From a virus: a stretch of 64,000 nucleotides of DNA. This document shows, one piece after another, positions 1 through 56,948 of this stretch. The notes under the pieces are model-generated. The model was not told the origin of the DNA, searched no databases, and saw only the letters and a program-made list of their open reading frames with translations. Location of the stretch: IMG/VR virus record IMGVR_UViG_3300023174_000063; one strand, 5' to 3'. Position 1 is the stretch's first letter. Every line of letters begins with the position of its first letter. Position numbers and translations under genes: made by a program.

Positions 1-1284
1 GACGATGTTGAAATTATCGTAAATCAAAAGTCAAAAACTTTTGAAGGACTAGAAGATCGTGCGACTTCCCGCAGTAGTTTAAAGTCTGCCACACAGCGCG
101 CGAAGATCTTCGAGATGAAGTACAAACTATTCAATATTATGCTTGAAAAAGAGATCAAGAACGGTCTCGGAATCAATGAAAAGAAGAAATTTGTACAAAT
201 ATTAGAAACTTTGCAGAAGCAGGCAGCAAAAATCAAGAGCGATGCTATACTTACAGAAGGTAGCTCAAAAATTATTAACAAAATGAATAATCTGATTAAG
301 GAGATGAAAATGTCAAGGAAGCGCGTGAACAATAATGTCTTTGATTTTCTTTTTGAGATGGCAGAAGAAGACGGCATGCCAGTAGAAGGCATGCACGAAG
401 AAGACGAGATGCCCGTCGAAGAAGCCCTCGAGGAAGCCGATGAAAAGGATGAGGGCGAGGGTGAGCCTGATGTCGACAGCGCTATCAAGGCGCTCGAGGA
501 TGCGCTTGCTGCTCTCAAGGGAGAGGGCGGCGATGAAGGCGAGGATGACATGGGCGACCTAGGTGACCTCGGCGGCGAAGGCGAGGATGATGCCGAAGGC
601 GCCGACGAAGGCGAGGACGAAGAGAAGAATGAGAGTCAGGTGTATGAGATCGATGAGTCCGTTCTTCGCCGTGAGCTTCGCCGCATGAAGCGTCTTTCAG
701 AGGTCACAAGTGGCGTTTCCGATCCCAAGTTTACAGCCCGCGCCTTTGGCGATGGCGACGTCGAGGATGAGATGTTCATCGACGTTGATGAGGAGACACT
801 CCTCAATGTTTTGGCCGATGAGCTCGGCCGTGTTAAGTTCAAGGGCGGCCGTATGCACGAGTCTGCCCACAGAAGAGCAGTTTCGCCCCGACGCAACAAT
901 GAGACTGCAGCTCTACGCTCCAAACTGAGAGAGTATGAGACAATGACAGAGTCGATGAAGTCACAGCTTGTTGAGATGAATCTCTTCAATGCGAAGCTTC
1001 TCTACGCCAACAAGTTAATGCAGAACAAGAATCTGACACAGAAGCAGCAGCGAGCAATTGTCGAGGCGCTAGATAATGCCAAGACGCTCCGCGAGGCAAA
1101 GCTTCTTTACAAGAGCCTGACTGAGTCCCTCAACAAGGGTGGCGCACGTTCGCTACAAGAGGGAAGCACACGGACGCTCGGATCGGCTTCCAGATCAACC
1201 CAGTCGGCGCAGGTTCGCCCGACATCCAATGGAGTTGAGGTAGATCGATGGGCAGTTCTTGCAGGCATCGCAAGCAAGAAATAA
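1..1284 (+). CDS. Prohead core/scaffold protein (5'-truncated by the window edge)
   Basis: Frame is open from base 1 (DDVEIIVNQ...), upstream of the track's ATG at 115. Long D/E-rich tract and coiled coil (NLFNAKLLYANKL...). Lies directly upstream of the MCP, like T4 gp22. Confidence 0.75.
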   Translation, partial: DDVEIIVNQKSKTFEGLEDRATSRSSLKSATQRAKIFEMKYKLFNIMLEKEIKNGLGINEKKKFVQILETLQKQAAKIKSDAILTEGSSKIINKMNNLIKEMKMSRKRVNNNVFDFLFEMAEEDGMPVEGMHEEDEMPVEEALEEADEKDEGEGEPDVDSAIKALEDALAALKGEGGDEGEDDMGDLGDLGGEGEDDAEGADEGEDEEKNESQVYEIDESVLRRELRRMKRLSEVTSGVSDPKFTARAFGDGDVEDEMFIDVDEETLLNVLADELGRVKFKGGRMHESAHRRAVSPRRNNETAALRSKLREYETMTESMKSQLVEMNLFNAKLLYANKLMQNKNLTQKQQRAIVEALDNAKTLREAKLLYKSLTESLNKGGARSLQEGSTRTLGSASRSTQSAQVRPTSNGVEVDRWAVLAGIASKK

Positions 1285-1325
1285 AAATCGCTAAACCAAA
1301 ACTACAAGGATTAAGGAGATATATT

Positions 1326-3230
1326 ATGAGTTCATTTTCTTTAGAGCAGCTGTCAGAGGGCATCCGCGAGAGGCACCTCGGCACACAGAACAAGCGACTC
1401 ACAGAGAAGTGGTCGCGCACAGGCCTTCTTCGTGGTCTCGACGGTGTCAACCGTGAGAACATGGCTCGCCTTCTCGAGAACCAGGCAGCACAGGTTCTTC
1501 GTGAGGCTTCAACCCTTTCAACTGGTGGGGGCGCACTCAGCGCTAGCGGAGATATCCGTGGCTTTACCAACGTTGCATTCCCAATCGTTCGCCGCGTCTT
1601 TGGTGGCCTCGTTGCCAACGAGCTCGTGTCGATCCAGCCAATGAGCCTTCCTTCGGGTCTGCTCTTCTACCTCGATTACACCTACGGAACAAACGTTGGT
1701 GGAACAGACCAGGGTAGTACATTTGTGTCAGGATCGTCGATCTACAATAACCCAGTCGGCAAAGGCGTCCAGAGCGGGTCGCTAGCAACAGGAGGTCAAT
1801 ATGACCTCGTTGGAACAACATATTCCAGAGTTCATAAAGCAACACCCGTCGATAACGTAGCTCCGACCAACAAACTATTTGCTTTCTCAGGCACCTCTAC
1901 GATTGTAAAGCCAGACGCAGATACAGCAATTGCTTCGACAGCACACGCTACAGGCACAGATGGTTTGCTGTTGCAGTTTGATCCCCAGATTACAAATCTC
2001 ATCGAGGCAGGTGGTCAATTTGTTTTCTTGGCAGTTCCATTCAATGCAGACAACTTCCCAAATGTAGATTCGACAGCTGTCAAAGGCATTTCTCTTGTTA
2101 AAGATAACGGAGCGGCCGGTTTTGATGCAGTCACAAACCTGGAGACAATTCCTGCAACGATTCAGGCAGGATCAACATTAAATGTTCGTCGTCTAAATCA
2201 GCTTGTAATATTCGATGGTACCTCTGTGACACCTGCACCTCTTGCGACAACAGCAACAGGCAACGCACACGTTCTAATGGTTTTGAAAGGTACCGGCATA
2301 CACAGCGGCGATCAGGGTAAATTTACAGTAACATACCCAGTATCAGATAAATTTGAGGCTGATGCTTCCGGTGGTGACACTCTCGTTATTCCCTCATTTG
2401 AATCATCTGCAGCGGCTCGCCAGCTTGACGCAGAGTCGCCAACAATCCCAGAGATCGACATTAAGATCGAGTCGCTGGCAGTTACGGCTCAGTCACGCAA
2501 GCTCAAGGCACGTTGGTCGCCTGAGCTCGCACAGGACCTGAATGCCTACCACAGCCTTGACGCTGAGGTTGAGCTCACACAGATCCTGTCAGAGCAGATT
2601 GCTCTAGAACTTGACAGAGAGGTTCTCAATGATCTTCTCACGCAGGCAAACGGCGCAAACTACTACTGGTCGCGCGCTCCCGGTCGCTTTGTCAACAAGG
2701 AGACCGGCCGCGAGGTCGAGCGTAACGGTTCACTCAACCCAGGACCCGCCTTCACAGGCACAGTCCGTGAGTGGTACGAGACTCTCGTCGAGACAATTAT
2801 CGACGTTGCCAACACAATTCACCGCAAGACACTGCGTGGTTCGGCGAACTTCATCGTCGTTGGACCCGACGTTGCCACAATCCTCGAGAGCTCGGTTTTC
2901 TACAAGCCCAGCTACACAATCGACGGTGAGGGCCAGGTCTCGTCACCCATGACTCTCGGCACCGAGAAGATTGGTACAGTGTCGAACCGTTTCACAGTCT
3001 ACAAGGACCCCTACTTCCCCCGCAACAAGATCCTTGTTGGTTACAAGGGCGGTAGCTACCTCGAGACAGGCTACGTCTACGCTCCTTACGTTCCTCTCAT
3101 CGTCACACCCACAATCTTCGCGCCAGACGATTTCACACCCCGTAAGGGCGTGATGACACGTTACGGCAAGAAGATGGTCCGCAGCGACTTCTACGGCACT
3201 GTGACACTGATGGACATGAACATTATCTAA
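1326..3230 (+). CDS. gp23: Major capsid protein, T4 gp23 family, with large insertion domain
   Basis: Motifs AFPIVRRVFGGLVANELVSIQPMSLPSGLLFYLD, RKLKARWSPELAQDLNAYHSLDAEVELT, YAPYVPL and PRKGVMTRYG. RBS AAGGAG precedes ATG 1326, so the track start at 1248 is likely too long. Confidence 0.96.
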   Translation: MSSFSLEQLSEGIRERHLGTQNKRLTEKWSRTGLLRGLDGVNRENMARLLENQAAQVLREASTLSTGGGALSASGDIRGFTNVAFPIVRRVFGGLVANELVSIQPMSLPSGLLFYLDYTYGTNVGGTDQGSTFVSGSSIYNNPVGKGVQSGSLATGGQYDLVGTTYSRVHKATPVDNVAPTNKLFAFSGTSTIVKPDADTAIASTAHATGTDGLLLQFDPQITNLIEAGGQFVFLAVPFNADNFPNVDSTAVKGISLVKDNGAAGFDAVTNLETIPATIQAGSTLNVRRLNQLVIFDGTSVTPAPLATTATGNAHVLMVLKGTGIHSGDQGKFTVTYPVSDKFEADASGGDTLVIPSFESSAAARQLDAESPTIPEIDIKIESLAVTAQSRKLKARWSPELAQDLNAYHSLDAEVELTQILSEQIALELDREVLNDLLTQANGANYYWSRAPGRFVNKETGREVERNGSLNPGPAFTGTVREWYETLVETIIDVANTIHRKTLRGSANFIVVGPDVATILESSVFYKPSYTIDGEGQVSSPMTLGTEKIGTVSNRFTVYKDPYFPRNKILVGYKGGSYLETGYVYAPYVPLIVTPTIFAPDDFTPRKGVMTRYGKKMVRSDFYGTVTLMDMNII

Positions 3231-3302: not shown

Positions 3303-3629
3303 ATGACTCGAAGAAATAGAAATCAACCAAAATTATCTAAAGATCGCTGTGAGATCTGTAACTACGATAGATCTGCAGCAATCAATTTTCATCACATTAT
3401 TCCTAGATGTGATCCTCGATGTACTAATGACAATTATAATCTAGCTGTCGTTTGTCACTCCTGCCATGACTTAATTCACGCCGGTGAAATTACCATTATC
3501 GGTGTTTATTACACGACTGCAGGTAGAAAGCTAATGTGGTTTAAGGATGGTGAAGAGCCTCCATTAGAAAAAGAATTTTGGAGAGTCAAAAATAATCCTC
3601 TAGTTTTAAGAAAAAAATTATCAATTTAG
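3303..3629 (+). CDS. Small HNH endonuclease
   Basis: CEIC...HHIIP...NDNYNLAVVCHSCHDLIH, a Zn-binding HNH signature. Confidence 0.85.
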   Translation: MTRRNRNQPKLSKDRCEICNYDRSAAINFHHIIPRCDPRCTNDNYNLAVVCHSCHDLIHAGEITIIGVYYTTAGRKLMWFKDGEEPPLEKEFWRVKNNPLVLRKKLSI

Positions 3630-3672
3630 ACTTCTACGTTATACTTAAAAACAACGACAATGATTTAGTTTA

Positions 3673-3775: not shown

Positions 3776-4684
3776 ATGTCATTTCTTAGCGAATCAAAGG
3801 TTAGAAAAATCATTAGAGGCATTATTCTTAATGAGATTGCCAGATCAGATGGAAGTCTTGATGGTTTTTTAAATGTGCTTAATTCATACAGCAATCATAC
3901 GTGGATATTCTTTGATACGGAGACGACAGGCTTAAGACCGTGGACTCGACAGCCTGGCAAAGAAGGTGGGCCACAACTAACACAGATCGCAGCTATAGCT
4001 GTCAAGCCTGACTGGGGTGCAGACAGCGATGGCAGCAATATACTTGGAACTTTTAATAAAAAAATCAGCTTTACTGATTATACTAGGCGGCTAATGACAA
4101 ATCCCAGTTCTAGAGAGCGTCAAAAGTGGGACGCCAAAGATCAAAAGCTAGGAAAGCGCGCGCTTGGAGATCCTAGAAAACTCTTGAGTATGACATCATA
4201 CGGCGTGAGTCGAGGTAAATTTGATCCAGAGCAGGATGTCATTAATGAATTTTTTAATTTTATTTCAGAATATCCAAACCCACTGCTGGTTGCTCAAAAT
4301 GCAAGTTTTGATATGAGATTTATTAATGTTAGAAGTGGTGGAAAAATGCCTAAACTTCCTGTGCTAGATACACTGACGCTAATCCAGCAGTATCTTTTTC
4401 CAGTTTTGACAGCTGCTGCCTCTTCAAGCAACCCTGATCCTGAAGCTTTACGCCTAATTGAGCTTCTTAAGAATCGCGGAAGACTTTCAGCATCCTTGGG
4501 TAATCTTTCAAAAGCATTTGATATTGAAGCATCAGGCTGGCATGATGCCCTAGAAGATGTTAAAATGTTGATGTCTGTCTACGTTAGAACGATAGAAATA
4601 TTAGAAAATCAAGTGTCAAGCGGCCTAAATGCGCAGGCTCAAATTGGAAAAGCATTGGCAGCTGCGCACAAACGTAAAAATTAA
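3776..4684 (+). CDS. DEDDh (DnaQ/RNase T-like) 3'-5' exonuclease with N-terminal basic helical tag
   Basis: ExoI FFDTETTGL, ExoII AQNASFDMRF, ExoIII WHDALEDV. Confidence 0.85.
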   Translation: MSFLSESKVRKIIRGIILNEIARSDGSLDGFLNVLNSYSNHTWIFFDTETTGLRPWTRQPGKEGGPQLTQIAAIAVKPDWGADSDGSNILGTFNKKISFTDYTRRLMTNPSSRERQKWDAKDQKLGKRALGDPRKLLSMTSYGVSRGKFDPEQDVINEFFNFISEYPNPLLVAQNASFDMRFINVRSGGKMPKLPVLDTLTLIQQYLFPVLTAAASSSNPDPEALRLIELLKNRGRLSASLGNLSKAFDIEASGWHDALEDVKMLMSVYVRTIEILENQVSSGLNAQAQIGKALAAAHKRKN

Positions 4685-9595: not shown

Positions 9596-10918
9596 ATGTC
9601 AACCAGGTACACACAATTTCCAGGTTCGATTAAGAGAGAAGCAACTGGATATGAAGGCACCAACGTGTCTGATGATTTTGTTTTGCCTTCATGTACGCTA
9701 GAAGACGCTGATCGCTCTGTTTTTAATTTATTTAATGAGCAGCTGCCTTTGCAATTTTATCAAAATGATGAGCTTAAAAGGATCCCGGTAATTTTTGCTA
9801 CGGGTGAAAGATTTGCAGTTCTTAATAGAAAAGAGCCCCTTAGAGACAGAAATAAAACTCTAATACTCCCTCTCATCTCAATTATGAGAACTAGCATTAA
9901 TCAGAACCCTGATAATCAACATGGCCCAGGCCAGATGCATCCTTCCAAATTAAAAATTAAAATTTCGCCTGAAAGTGACACATATCAGCGACTTGTTAAC
10001 AAGTTGGGCCTTTCAAATCAAGATAATTTGGCAAGTGAATCTCATTTATCTGACGGGGGGGTGTTGCCCGGGACCGTCGCCACCAGGAGAGAAAGAAGCA
10101 CACAGGCGCAGTCAACAATTGAAGGAAAGCTTCTTACGCCAAGCCTAGAAGACAATATCTACGAAATTATTACGATGCCTCCTGTCAAGTTTTATCAAGC
10201 GACTTATAACGTAACTATTTGGGCGCAATTTACCAAGCAGATGAACGAGATTTTGTCTGCAATCATGAGCTCTTATCAAAATAATTACGGCAGAACGTTT
10301 AGGCTCGAGACCAGCAAAGGATATTGGTTTGTAGGTTATGTCGCTAGCGATTTTTCAGCAGGTGAAAACTATGATGATTTTACTGATTCTGAAAGACTAA
10401 TTAAGCAATCATTTGACATTAAGGTTAATGCGTATCTTGTGATGCCTGAGTTTCCTGGAAGTCCTAATGGGCTTCGTAGAAGTATTTCTGCTCCCACAAT
10501 TGAGTTTACAGTTACTAGCATTAATGCAGAGATATCTCAAAATATGAATGCTAACGTGCCTAGTCATTCTAAAGAAGCTTTCATTTTAGACGATATTTCT
10601 AATGTGGGAGATGGACTTCCCGGTCAGGCAATTGCTGTCAATGAAGTTAATTCTGGGTTGGCAAGAATTGGTGAAAATGTTGATCAAAGCAGCGTTATCG
10701 ATGACAGTAATCTCCAGGGGCCCAGTGTTGTTGGTGAATTTGCAGCGGGCAAAGATGACTTAATTCTCTATAGATACGATGTTAATCCTTTTACAGGAAA
10801 AAGAAAGAAGATTCCTGTTAGAGCAAGAAAGATGAGACCTGTTGCCGGCGGATCAGAGAGTCGTCAGGGAGAGACAATTTATCGTGAAGAATGGATAGTT
10901 GATATTGGAGATATTTAA
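9596..10918 (+). CDS. Tail terminator/sheath stabiliser (T4 gp15-like)
   Basis: IPVIFATGERF, LPLISI.R, YNVTIWAQFTKQMNEI; lies directly before the sheath genes. Confidence 0.65.
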   Translation: MSTRYTQFPGSIKREATGYEGTNVSDDFVLPSCTLEDADRSVFNLFNEQLPLQFYQNDELKRIPVIFATGERFAVLNRKEPLRDRNKTLILPLISIMRTSINQNPDNQHGPGQMHPSKLKIKISPESDTYQRLVNKLGLSNQDNLASESHLSDGGVLPGTVATRRERSTQAQSTIEGKLLTPSLEDNIYEIITMPPVKFYQATYNVTIWAQFTKQMNEILSAIMSSYQNNYGRTFRLETSKGYWFVGYVASDFSAGENYDDFTDSERLIKQSFDIKVNAYLVMPEFPGSPNGLRRSISAPTIEFTVTSINAEISQNMNANVPSHSKEAFILDDISNVGDGLPGQAIAVNEVNSGLARIGENVDQSSVIDDSNLQGPSVVGEFAAGKDDLILYRYDVNPFTGKRKKIPVRARKMRPVAGGSESRQGETIYREEWIVDIGDI

Positions 10919-11022
10919 CTTCAAAGTTTTTTACATTTGCAATAAATGAAAATTTTCAATTTTACACGATACTTATCTTAGTAAATCTACACATAACATT
11001 TTGAGTCCAAGGAGATATATCA

Positions 11023-25000: not shown

Positions 25001-26627
25001 AACTATAATTACAAAATTGGCAGATACCGGCGCAAATACTGCTATGGCAATTGCAGCAATTATGAAAGCAATTCCTACCGGAAGCTATTTTAGTTTTGCT
25101 GATACAAGGCTAGGCCGTCTAAAAGAAGGAATGAAATTAGTTACATCACTTTCTGATTCGCTCAGTGATCCTATAAAGAAGATGCAGCCAATAATTGCCG
25201 ACGTCAGGACGATGATGACAACAACAGACCCTGCAGCATTTGAAGCGGGCACAAAGTTTTTAGCCGCTCTTTTGCCTCCAATTCTTGATTTTATGATGAT
25301 GGGACCCAAGCTTTTTTCTTCAATACAGAAATCAGTTACCAATAGTGAAGGTGAAATTAATACAATAAAATTTGAAAGATTAGCCATAATAACGGGTCAG
25401 ATAATGAGCTCAGTATCAAAGCCCGAAATGCTGACTAGTTTTAGTGAAGCCGTAAAAGGAATTACCAAGCTTGTCAATGACAAGTCATTCTCTGAAGACG
25501 TTATGAAGCCTGGATTCGATAAAAAAATGACAAAAGTTGTAAAGATTTTCGAAGTCATTAAATCTTTTAGCTCAATAACAGCTGATCTCATAGGAATTGT
25601 CACTGCTTTGCCTTATCTAGGCAATGGAAAGTCTGATTCTGAAAAAATCACATCAACGGTGACTTTGCTCAATAGCATTATTGGCTCAATTCCAGGGATG
25701 CTGAGCCGGCTCGTGACAGAAAGTGCAAATGTTTTCAATAGCCCTGAATTGAACCAGGCACTAAAAGACTACGACCCTAAAAAAGTTGAAGACAAGGTCG
25801 AAATGATCAAGTCGCTGTTTGAAATTCTAGGAGGGTTTACGTCAACAGTTGCAGGAATTTCCGAAGAAGTTATTGAAAAATCTAATGACGCAACCACACG
25901 TACTGGAGGCCTGACACTGGCGCCTGATAAAGTAGTCATGGGTACTAAATTTGGCCAAACAATGGAAGTCATCAGCAAAATAATTTCAGATGGCAAACTA
26001 AGAGATTTTGTAGGACAAATGTCGACCATTTTTGGCAATCTTTTTAAAGAAGTTGGACAAGACGGTTTGGCAAATGTTGGTAAATTTCAAGATTTTATTA
26101 GAGAAAGTATTTCAGCGCTTAAAGAATTTACTAACTTTCCTTCGGGCATAAGTAGTGGAATTAGAGATGCGTATGATGCGATTGTTCAGGGCGCTCCAGC
26201 TACATCTAGCGGTCTCATGCAAGGCACTTGGCTGCAAGCTATCGTACAAGCGCTAAGTTATACAGGCAACGCAGAAACTTTAAAAAATGCCGAGTCAAAT
26301 TCAGATACGTGGATTAAAATTGCCAACAATACCGCTAGCTTTCTAAAAATTCTTTCAGAATCTGCACAATTTGTTGATGCTGTTGCCTCAACATACATAG
26401 GCGCAGTTACTAAGATCCAAGAAATTGGCGATGCTTTTGCAACAACGAAGACTTTCGAACTGGCCATGGATCTTAGAGATCTTTTGCAGTCAAATAAAAA
26501 AGTCGTAGTAGATACAACTGGCGCAGAGTATCATATATCTTTAGTCGTTAATATCGATGCTGAAAAGTTAGCAGAAAATTTGGCAAAGACAAAAATATTC
26601 GGTGAAAAACTTGGAACAGGATCCTAA
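22098..26627 (+). CDS. Tape measure protein
   Basis: 1509 aa, helical, A/G/L-rich, N-terminal coiled coil, central hydrophobic helices; follows tube and chaperones. Confidence 0.85.
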   Translation: MADTPDVGVGNLDLQRQLNSLITERNKILAQHNSTIEAHNNLIAEMSLKLSNMQLATAGAARSNAEMNSALEESSRLARATSEDIDDLNKKLKETDKKSFNVTGILKKMGGALLSVGKVAGSIIGVLIDAGAAIFNIAKAVIAWPFALLGALIEQANSLPSGPNPIKVALEDIRKAFGDLNANEGKAVAGSLGEIRRELSDFAGTGLRVARIYGYGSEGIAAAMKDFQAIAEALGPSLNRLQQDVRGNIPELLALTKGFTTSAEATAAMLKHAKSLGKDGTQEIIRMTGMAQRMGKQYGINAKIIGKAVGEMSKDVSNFGSLSSKQLMSSAVYASKLGIEIKELADVMNKFLNFEDAAKGAAEMAQAFGMNVDVMELMKGGPEAIDEMRKAFFASGRSIENMSNAERKLLEMQTGLTGASLEAALAAENQGLSYDQIASSAEDAESVQEQQIKVMRELGKSIERVFGSGGDTFKDFTESITKGFNDGLNRAGPFLQVLQFIRTDLRKANWFGRELGKTFGTLFPGFVKFSNGLAAVFNPVNFKQLFHDFSGNFRQFMNDLSDPKKNAVKVFLENIKKTFSSFFSRSGPGGEKIFDGFKTMVSTVWRIFKELVTVGAEELTALIKDFLKGDFIKSLTSGVDSASSEVGKALGGLWDAIVKAWDTLWPVLQPKLEEFGTWLKEKFFAIINSLFGITKEDVESSAGSLMSAFSSAAPFLVGGMIAPIAAMLAPALGGVIKGAFTATTELITRFALTSLVPALGGLPGAAPPIPGAPMSGAAFGSFLAKGLAILVIGAVLIPLAASYLKKITPSLMEINPEVLPKLGIAMLALGGLFLAGAGMLGMIKLASYLDVKAGAMLAGIGIIAAAVGAMALTAKAVNWLLEDIDANKLKTQAEALDKLTWMGTKMSAAALVIGAIVVQTYGLGALVIGAGVAMIASVITGTVTALMPAIKALSKIKLENPEHFEKTTTIITKLADTGANTAMAIAAIMKAIPTGSYFSFADTRLGRLKEGMKLVTSLSDSLSDPIKKMQPIIADVRTMMTTTDPAAFEAGTKFLAALLPPILDFMMMGPKLFSSIQKSVTNSEGEINTIKFERLAIITGQIMSSVSKPEMLTSFSEAVKGITKLVNDKSFSEDVMKPGFDKKMTKVVKIFEVIKSFSSITADLIGIVTALPYLGNGKSDSEKITSTVTLLNSIIGSIPGMLSRLVTESANVFNSPELNQALKDYDPKKVEDKVEMIKSLFEILGGFTSTVAGISEEVIEKSNDATTRTGGLTLAPDKVVMGTKFGQTMEVISKIISDGKLRDFVGQMSTIFGNLFKEVGQDGLANVGKFQDFIRESISALKEFTNFPSGISSGIRDAYDAIVQGAPATSSGLMQGTWLQAIVQALSYTGNAETLKNAESNSDTWIKIANNTASFLKILSESAQFVDAVASTYIGAVTKIQEIGDAFATTKTFELAMDLRDLLQSNKKVVVDTTGAEYHISLVVNIDAEKLAENLAKTKIFGEKLGTGS

Positions 26628-56121: not shown

Positions 56122-56195
56122 TCATTTTTTTATATCAGAATAGTGTAGAGAATATTTACGCAGTATGACTACTCTGCTGTGTGAGGAATTAAGCA

Positions 56196-56948
56196 ATGAA
56201 ACTCTATCATGTTACGCCCGTTGAAAATGCCAAAAGTATTATTAAGACCGGAACGAAAAATAACACTAAACACAAATTTAACCGTGGTGCTTTTTATTTT
56301 TTTTGTAGCTTGAGACATGCAATAAGTCATGCCGTCGCTGAGGAAAATGAACACCGCGGAAAAAACCTATGTATACTGCAATTTGAAATGGAGCCAGACC
56401 CTGCAAATTTCAATATTGACACTGAAGCTAGTTACGAGTTTATTCACGCCTGGATCCGAAAGAATTCAGAAGAAATTTCTAGAGTTACCGGTTATAAATT
56501 AATGGAGCCGGCTAGTAAATTAACCGATAAATTTTCAGATGATCGAGAAGCGCCCCGATGGTTGTATAACCCAGACCCAAATAGACCTCCATCGGACCCG
56601 CGCTACGCCGCGCGCGGCCTCGTCGGCATGTCGTCGACGTACGACATAAAAATACCGCCCGACGACCCTTTTTTTTCTGCAAAAAAGGAAGACGCCGTAA
56701 AGGACAGATTATATGCATTTATTAGTAGCTTTCCACAGCTAGAGGCGTCAATGGAAAAATTTGCATTTGATCACCCCCGGGTACGTAATGGTGAAGTTAG
56801 GCTAGCACTTGCATATTTTGGTCCGCCAGTCTTTCCAGAGAAAGTATTGTCACCCGAGGGAGCTGAAATACAGCTGCAGCAAGAAGGGTTTGCTAGCAGA
56901 AAAATAGTCGTTGAAAGATGGCAGCGTCTAGCTGGAATCTTAAAGTAG
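56196..56948 (+). CDS. Putative ADP-ribosyltransferase-fold protein with scaffold-like C-terminal tag
   Basis: LYHVT...AKSIIKTG...GAFYF..S..HA..HA...ILQF resembles the H-Y type ART N-terminus; ends ERWQRLAGILK. Confidence 0.5.
   Translation: MKLYHVTPVENAKSIIKTGTKNNTKHKFNRGAFYFFCSLRHAISHAVAEENEHRGKNLCILQFEMEPDPANFNIDTEASYEFIHAWIRKNSEEISRVTGYKLMEPASKLTDKFSDDREAPRWLYNPDPNRPPSDPRYAARGLVGMSSTYDIKIPPDDPFFSAKKEDAVKDRLYAFISSFPQLEASMEKFAFDHPRVRNGEVRLALAYFGPPVFPEKVLSPEGAEIQLQQEGFASRKIVVERWQRLAGILK

Follow-up and report, generated by a model that had tools for sequence, protein, structure and literature searches.

A scaffold-type terminal peptide on an ADP-ribosyltransferase-like protein of a T4-related virus: a candidate protease-removable tag for loading cargo into the capsid

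In encapsulins, with their cargo-loading peptides, and in the tail of the HK97 protease, a C-terminal peptide directs an enzyme inside an HK97-fold shell. The 2017 work of Dearborn and colleagues is said to have found that CpmB of SaPI1, a protein unrelated to the scaffold of phage 80alpha, carries the C-terminal capsid-binding motif of that scaffold, for the same site. Bacteriophage T4 loads the ADP-ribosyltransferase (ART) Alt and its internal proteins into the core of the head through short terminal propeptides, gp21 being the protease that trims IPI-III of their N-terminal targeting peptides and Alt at both ends; the prohead proteases of T4, phiKZ and SPN3US all cut after a Glu that follows a short motif (PMC9026906). 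Here we analyse a stretch of virus DNA of 64,000 nucleotides (IMG/VR record IMGVR_UViG_3300023174_000063, hereafter the window), in which a gene at 56196-56948 encodes an ART-like protein ending in the same short peptide as the protein encoded just before the major capsid gene. We suggest that this peptide is a tag that mimics the scaffold, can be removed by the prohead protease and would load the enzyme into the capsid. This is the best explanation we have, and we hold the whole mechanism, as read from sequence, to be somewhat probable; our confidence is greater for the narrower claim that the two proteins share a docking peptide. The features at the centre of this proposal are the following.

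1-1284, plus strand: scaffold-position protein, open at the 5' end of the window with 427 residues visible, directly upstream of the gp23-family gene
1246-1281, plus strand: scaffold tail RWAVLAGIASKK; an alignment of 32 tails shows W, L, A and G unchanged throughout and R in nearly all
1323-3230, plus strand: major capsid protein (PF07068/phrog_138), the presumed receptor of the tail
56196-56948, plus strand: gene of the ART-fold-like protein of 250 residues with a scaffold-type tail, starting at ATG with GAGG about 10 nucleotides upstream
56916-56945, plus strand: tag RWQRLAGILK, located by motif scan and tail alignment and modelled as a helix at residues 232-245

Compared with the capsid-targeting sequences of T4 (IPI-III and Alt; Mullaney and Black 1996, reviewed in PMC9026906), the locus is alike in having a short terminal peptide that stands on unrelated proteins beside a Glu-ended site. 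The parallel extends to a gp23-type capsid here, an S77 protease in relatives and one ART-type cargo candidate. In contrast, the T4 sequences are N-terminal, have another sequence and do not copy the end of gp22 (which is YAKVASRF in T4), whereas the peptide described here is that of the scaffold and mostly C-terminal; N-terminal copies occur in relatives only, and that of the ART-like protein is C-terminal. As with the 80alpha scaffold and CpmB, a second protein shares the C-terminal motif of the scaffold, but CpmB is a rival scaffold by which a pirate element resizes the capsid, whereas here the phage itself tags enzymes and proteins of no recognised family, apparently as cargo. The encapsulin and HK97 motifs differ from this one and involve no scaffold mimicry, and encapsulin cargo is not known to be released by a protease or delivered to another cell. 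The tag would be a variant of the T4 capsid-targeting principle, joined to scaffold mimicry as in SaPI1 CpmB.

The scaffold-position open reading frame (ORF) ends VDRWAVLAGIASKK (D at 1243, stop codon at 1282-1284; tail string DRWAVLAGIASKK), and the ART-like one ends VVERWQRLAGILK, with ERWQRLAGILK as closing residues (E240 at 56913, stop codon at 56946-56948). By scanning the window in six frames for [DE]RWxxLAG[IL], we found only these two matches, 13 and 11 residues before the stop in the scaffold and the ART-like protein, respectively. Then, we compared the last 16 residues of the 54 ORFs of the window with one another (BLOSUM62, ungapped). First, the scaffold/ART-like pair scored 37 and was outscored by a single pair, which consists of two full-length paralogous tail proteins. 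Second, with random internal 16-mers the maximum was 28.1 +/- 2.8 on average, and none of 40 replicates reached 37. Third, the shared residues are encoded by different codons in the two tails, so that the likeness lies at the protein level and selection acts on the peptide. An earlier note on this DNA had claimed that both proteins share a terminal [D/E]RWxxLAGI, and this is borne out.

That the ORF ending at 1284 encodes the scaffold is a well-founded inference from its position and composition. The gene that follows it encodes a capsid protein of the T4 gp23 family (PF07068, E 1.4e-78; phrog_138, E 2e-73), whose nearest named relatives are those of Flavobacterium phage immuto, Microcystis phage Mel-JY01, two uncultured huge phages and XacN1. 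By using this capsid protein as a query, we obtained 80 IMG/VR loci at 61-81% identity, and homologues of the scaffold-position protein keep their place directly before the capsid gene in 79 of them. In one relative (L004) a Peptidase_S77 protease (E 1e-26), small ORFs, the scaffold-position protein and the capsid protein follow one another, which is the T4 order 21-22-23, and the immuto and S-SKS1 layouts are identical; the evidence for the S77 protease comes from relatives, the phage's own protease gene lying outside the window. The middle of the scaffold-position protein is acidic and coiled-coil-like, and its C-terminal third is conserved. The earlier note had named this protein the scaffold. 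Its position before the capsid gene fits that name, but neither it nor its full-length relatives matched a Pfam or PHROG family, and hhalign against T4 gp22 gave E 0.2. Because of this the label is taken from gene position (synteny), which weighs against our reading. Separately, residues 57-64 of the capsid protein (window 1323-1502) read VLRE then ASTL, an L-x-E site near the position at which T4 gp23 loses its propeptide.

In 79 of the 80 loci the protein before the capsid gene ends RW[AS]xLAG[IL] plus 0-6 residues, and four loci have a second tail-bearing ORF after the capsid gene. In three loci a tagged gene follows the capsid gene closely and thus belongs to the head module. We then ran a DNA pattern for WxxLAG on the records of nine relatives (132-318 kb, plus the complete immuto genome), which gave 29 matches against 11 for the reversed control. 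Among the matches in long ORFs, nine are in scaffolds and ten in other ORFs (311 to 943 residues), where 7-12 residues separate the motif from the stop, a closeness to the end that a random in-frame position in such ORFs is expected to show only a few percent of the time; two more lie within the first 30 residues and two are internal, and the remaining matches are in short or off-frame ORFs. The ten non-scaffold ORFs have the terminal consensus [RN]WxxLAG[ILV], and BLASTP sorts the tagged proteins into at least seven groups that show no similarity to one another. One is a class I S-adenosylmethionine-dependent methyltransferase (L100:1497-2429, minus strand; PF13489, E 1e-11) ending ENWKELAGR, while no Pfam or PHROG family matched the other tagged proteins in the relatives' records. 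The cargo tails constitute a subtype with the pattern hydrophobic-hydrophobic-E-[RN]-W-x-[KR]-L-A-G-[IL]-[IL]-K, and within this clade the scaffold tail is D-R-W-A-[VT]-L-A-G. Thus, scanning the window and the nine records for the motif revealed its terminal recurrence on unrelated proteins. We found no description of this motif in the literature. Internal copies of the tag, SRWAKLAGL..LTE in L093:745-2004 and ILERWHKLAGLEPLNE in L113 (around position 1517, minus strand), sit in the middle of ORFs of 420 and more than 660 residues, which may be cargo polyproteins or gene fusions. A resemblance of residues 160-250 of the ART-like protein to the end of a tagged protein of 656 residues was rejected because it is carried by the tail alone.

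The tail is also modular within the family of the ART-like protein itself. The first four distant homologues came from an exhaustive profile search, and further searches raised the family to eight, 7-8 of which were aligned; neither the protein nor its relatives were found in IMG/VR or in a first JGI scan, a second JGI scan returned only L118 and L119, and tblastn of the protein against 50,697 phage records gave no match. Family members are 23-36% identical, and their cores can be aligned between Met1 and a conserved G-x-P at about residue 222, beyond which they diverge. Four of them end RWxx[LM]AG, one ends RMLRLCGII (P0003), one has an unrelated end, and the L118/L119 pair has no tail. Instead of the tail, L118 and L119 carry a 15-residue N-terminal extension, MFKLKEILYESHEKSE, the start of which is shared with the next ORF: in L119 the tail-less homologue (9953-10594) and the ORF after it (10676-10954) both begin M[FI]KLKEIL, as is also the case in L118. 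This shared start may be an N-terminal targeting leader of another kind, belonging to a different phage lineage. A terminal peptide that is gained, lost and exchanged on a conserved core is what is predicted for a portable signal. The portable tag proposed in the earlier note hence gains comparative support from the conserved scaffold terminus, from the recurrence on unrelated proteins and from this modularity.

Outside the clade, the scaffold-position protein of immuto (MW353176.1, 125582-126823) ends SRWQKLAGIIK; it is annotated as a "DNA polymerase phi-like protein", probably from its acidic low-complexity region. Related tails stand on the scaffold-position proteins of Mel-JY01 (ERMKKLAGIVK), LR756508 (SRMQKLADIS) and XacN1 (ORF275, NMMKLAGIKG). 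In XacN1 the C-terminal tail is found on ORF275 only, ORF218 being a weak N-terminal look-alike, and the text of the published XacN1 proteome holds nothing on either. The motif is absent from S-SKS1 gp22 and from the termini of T4 gp22, gp67, gp68 and gp21. Also, no protein in the complete immuto genome other than the scaffold-position protein ends in the motif. However, two small and mutually dissimilar immuto proteins of 154 and 131 residues (MW353176.1 111631-112095, L127, and 25470-25865, L123) start with the 20-residue leader MKKQILSEQF[RK]RMQ[KF]LAGIITES, in which a scaffold-tail copy precedes an I-x-E site. Immuto is cultured, and its scaffold as well as these two proteins carry the motif, which opens a direct test of the idea.

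A candidate cut site directly adjoins the tag of the ART-like protein.

56907-56915, plus strand: Val-Val-Glu, candidate prohead-protease cut site VVE/RW, where [LIVM]-x-E adjoins [RN][WM]

In 10 of 18 cargo tails, including this one, [LIVM]-x-E directly abuts [RN][WM], against a background of 1.6% per position (binomial p ~4e-14); T4 gp21 cleaves at triplets of this type, (L/I)-x-E. With N-terminal tags the triplet comes after the tag, on the side of the cargo, in all copies (LAGVVTE/Q, LAGINE/S and LAGIITE/S), and the internal copies likewise have a hydrophobic-x-Glu triplet after them. Two points weigh against a cut site: three of the ten triplet-positive tails belong to one family, and the hydrophobic stretch with its Glu may instead be part of the binding helix. 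The earlier note had placed possible Glu-specific protease sites at QLQQE before the tag. This sequence is indeed present (residues 226-230, 56871-56885), but we rejected it as the cut site because it is not conserved among the tails, unlike the VVE/RW position, which makes VVE/RW the better candidate.

Binding, enclosure, cleavage, ejection and catalysis, as well as the target of the enzyme, are steps that we infer as follows. RWQRLAGILK would mimic the peptide with which the C-terminus of the phage's head scaffold docks and, while the prohead assembles, would fill the site of the scaffold tail, which is most probably located on the interior surface of the gp23-type capsid protein or within the core. 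In this way a small number of enzyme molecules would be trapped in the prohead, where the gp21-type protease would cut after Glu240 (VVE/RW) and release them inside the head, to leave together with the DNA when the next cell is infected. With its predicted small split ART-superfamily fold and a set of His, Tyr-Phe and Asp-x-Glu residues, the enzyme would probably act soon after infection begins, using NAD+ to modify either a protein or a nucleic acid of the host. Predicting a complex of the capsid protein with the 30-residue tail, without controls, gave ipSAE values of 0.00 and 0.01, which we count neither way.

The same peptide might instead dock on a hub other than the shell, such as the prohead protease, the portal, a chaperone or the scaffold core, and serve processing or co-assembly, although enclosure may still follow. 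We consider this unlikely. According to PMC9026906, it is the core rather than the shell for which the targeting sequences of T4 have an affinity, which speaks for such a hub. So does the fact that the tag adjoins protease-type sites. Nevertheless, the scaffold needs a contact with the shell and the tail is its most conserved segment, and the C-terminus of the scaffold is the element that binds the capsid protein in P22, phi29 and 80alpha.

The body of the tagged protein can be divided as follows.

56196-56504, plus strand: N-terminal half of the ART-like core, residues 1-103, with Tyr4-His5-x-Thr7, Phe33-Tyr34, Asp75 and Glu77 (pLDDT ~80)
56508-56693, plus strand: variable insertion, about residues 105-166, modelled as disordered (pLDDT <50), gapped and of variable length among homologues
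56805-56849, plus strand: C-terminal core strands, residues 204-218, with invariant Tyr207 and Pro214

We consider it likely that this protein has an ART-superfamily fold. Tyr4, His5, Thr7, Phe33, Asp75, Glu77, Tyr207 and Pro214 are invariant in the family alignment. The only Pfam match is DUF3990 (residues 1-87, E 0.03), which three of five members match with a best E of 0.0047. DUF3990 (PF13151) belongs to the ART clan of Pfam (PMC7955679). The nine best Protein Data Bank matches of the family profile are all exotoxin A, and in these weak matches (E 0.16-0.45) the profile aligns YH[VG]T and GFY with the His440 and Tyr470 segments of the toxin, pairing His5 and Tyr34 with these two residues. 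In the AlphaFold model (pLDDT 66) the core reaches ~80, residues 105-166 are disordered and the tail forms a helix at 232-245. Its VIA-align list consists almost wholly of ART-superfamily chains (Z 3.8-6.6), with alignments running from residue 1 to ~218-236, and the model of homologue P0003 (pLDDT 85) gave a similar list (Z 3.5-6.4). The top-50 chains include KptA, Tpt1, CC0527, PltA, pertussis S1, LT, DarT, PARPs and DT, with 75-138 residues aligned. Also, the structure rows of ESM Atlas include DarT, DUF3990 and Tpt1, and the closest structures, KptA/Tpt1 and DarT, are nucleic-acid-directed enzymes.

Several of these results count against an ART assignment. The DUF3990 match has 14 bits where the cut-off is 32.2, and all ART sequence matches are below curated thresholds. 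VIA-align Z values of 3.5-6.6 are below the level that the tool itself deems trustworthy. Foldseek gave E 0.15 or weaker with the model of the protein and no ART match near the top with the better model, that of P0003; a BFVD fold search gave weak rows only. Moreover, position 34 is either Tyr or Phe in the family, Phe occurring in three members. Hence, what the earlier note had said of an ART-like N-terminus agrees with the fold lists and the His5, Phe33-Tyr34, Asp75 and Glu77 motifs, but falls short of every curated threshold. The protein is alike to exotoxin A, DUF3990, KptA/Tpt1, DarT and the diphtheria toxin core in the YH[VG]T/GFY alignment and the fold lists. Compared with minimal ARTs, its core is interrupted by an insertion of ~90-100 residues, and its candidate acidic motif, Asp-x-Glu, lies ~40 residues after GFY. 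It differs from T4 Alt, an R-S-E type ART of ~70 kDa, in its size of 28 kDa and in its His-Tyr-Glu-like minimal fold, without the Arg, Ser-Thr-Ser and Glu motifs.

Tagged proteins could also be auxiliary parts of the core or scaffold that are enclosed and then degraded, expelled or held inactive by sequestration, rather than effectors for delivery, in which case the ART-like fold would be decayed or structural. Most tagged proteins are indeed without a family and resemble fast-evolving core proteins, and in T4 the core proteins gp67 and gp68 are degraded to fragments that exit the head (PMC9026906). We find this account quite improbable: His5, Phe33, Asp75, Glu77 and Tyr207 are invariant across homologues of such low identity, which argues for a maintained active site, and a methyltransferase is among the tag carriers.

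The gene of the ART-like protein does not lie in the head module. Its neighbours encode a ThyX homologue, a nucleoside deoxyribosyltransferase, an SDR epimerase and DnaE, and this place among genes of nucleotide metabolism and replication is a point against our reading. The structural genes are marked by the heptamer ATACTTA, often within ATACTTAG, with plus-strand copies at 3641, 4707, 5888, 6817, 10969, 20057 and 21782; seven of eight plus-strand copies are intergenic between 3641 and 21789, 13-135 nucleotides upstream of structural-gene starts. In this phage, ATACTTA(G/T) may act as a late promoter element. It is absent upstream of the gene of the ART-like protein, so that late co-expression with the head proteins is not indicated, which is the main point against co-expression.

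56152-56158, plus strand: ATATTTA, a one-mismatch variant of ATACTTA, possibly a weak promoter-like element

The earlier note had called this heptamer late-type. It is present where the note had it, but ATATTTA occurs 15 times in the window, mostly inside genes, whereas structural genes are marked by ATACTTA; we thus rejected it as a late promoter. Elsewhere in the window, a small Cys/His-rich ORF (3303-3629), HNH endonuclease-like by appearance, separates the capsid gene from the head-region genes that follow, and a protein with an RNase_T/DEDD exonuclease domain (3776-4684; PF00929, E 1e-9) is encoded within the head-gene region.

This context would suit a cytoplasmic enzyme, DarT- or Tpt1-like, that acts in the modification of DNA or nucleotides or in RNA repair, with a tail for oligomerisation or for late inactivation by removal into heads. 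The ThyX, deoxyribosyltransferase, epimerase and DnaE neighbours, the nucleic-acid-directed enzymes among the closest structural matches and the missing late-type motif all favour it. It leaves unexplained that the tail is that of the scaffold terminus and that the same tail stands on unrelated proteins, some of them in the head module, and we hold little expectation that it is right. Finally, a chance or convergent likeness of two amphipathic C-terminal helices without common function is very improbable, even if the motif is short and has only two instances in the window, because the null for the window never reached the observed score, terminal recurrence in nine other records exceeds the reversed-pattern control and the tail is kept in distant homologues.

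A capsid-loading tag that mimics the scaffold thus remains the reading we prefer, and it might extend further. Across T4-related aquatic and huge phages, in a group that spans this clade, Immutovirus, Mel-JY01 and XacN1 and whose scaffold-position proteins end [WM]x[KR]LAGI, the C-terminal peptide of the scaffold might be a universal, position-independent and protease-flanked label that loads a fast-changing set of enzymes. This set would include a DarT/Tpt1-like ART that on injection could ADP-ribosylate host DNA or RNA, while modified pyrimidines of the phage would protect its own genome. This wider picture is speculative, and we think it unlikely to hold.

If the proposed mechanism is true, the tag would be a rule, readable in sequence, for the proteins that a large group of uncultured T4-related phages inject with their DNA. 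The injected repertoire, with its candidates for host takeover and anti-defence, could then be listed from sequence alone, and one mechanism would serve both scaffold-capsid recognition and cargo loading. The peptide would also offer a compact, protease-removable label for putting foreign proteins into T4-type capsids. Moreover, the tagged ART-like enzyme would be a second packaged effector that uses NAD+, unrelated to T4 Alt.
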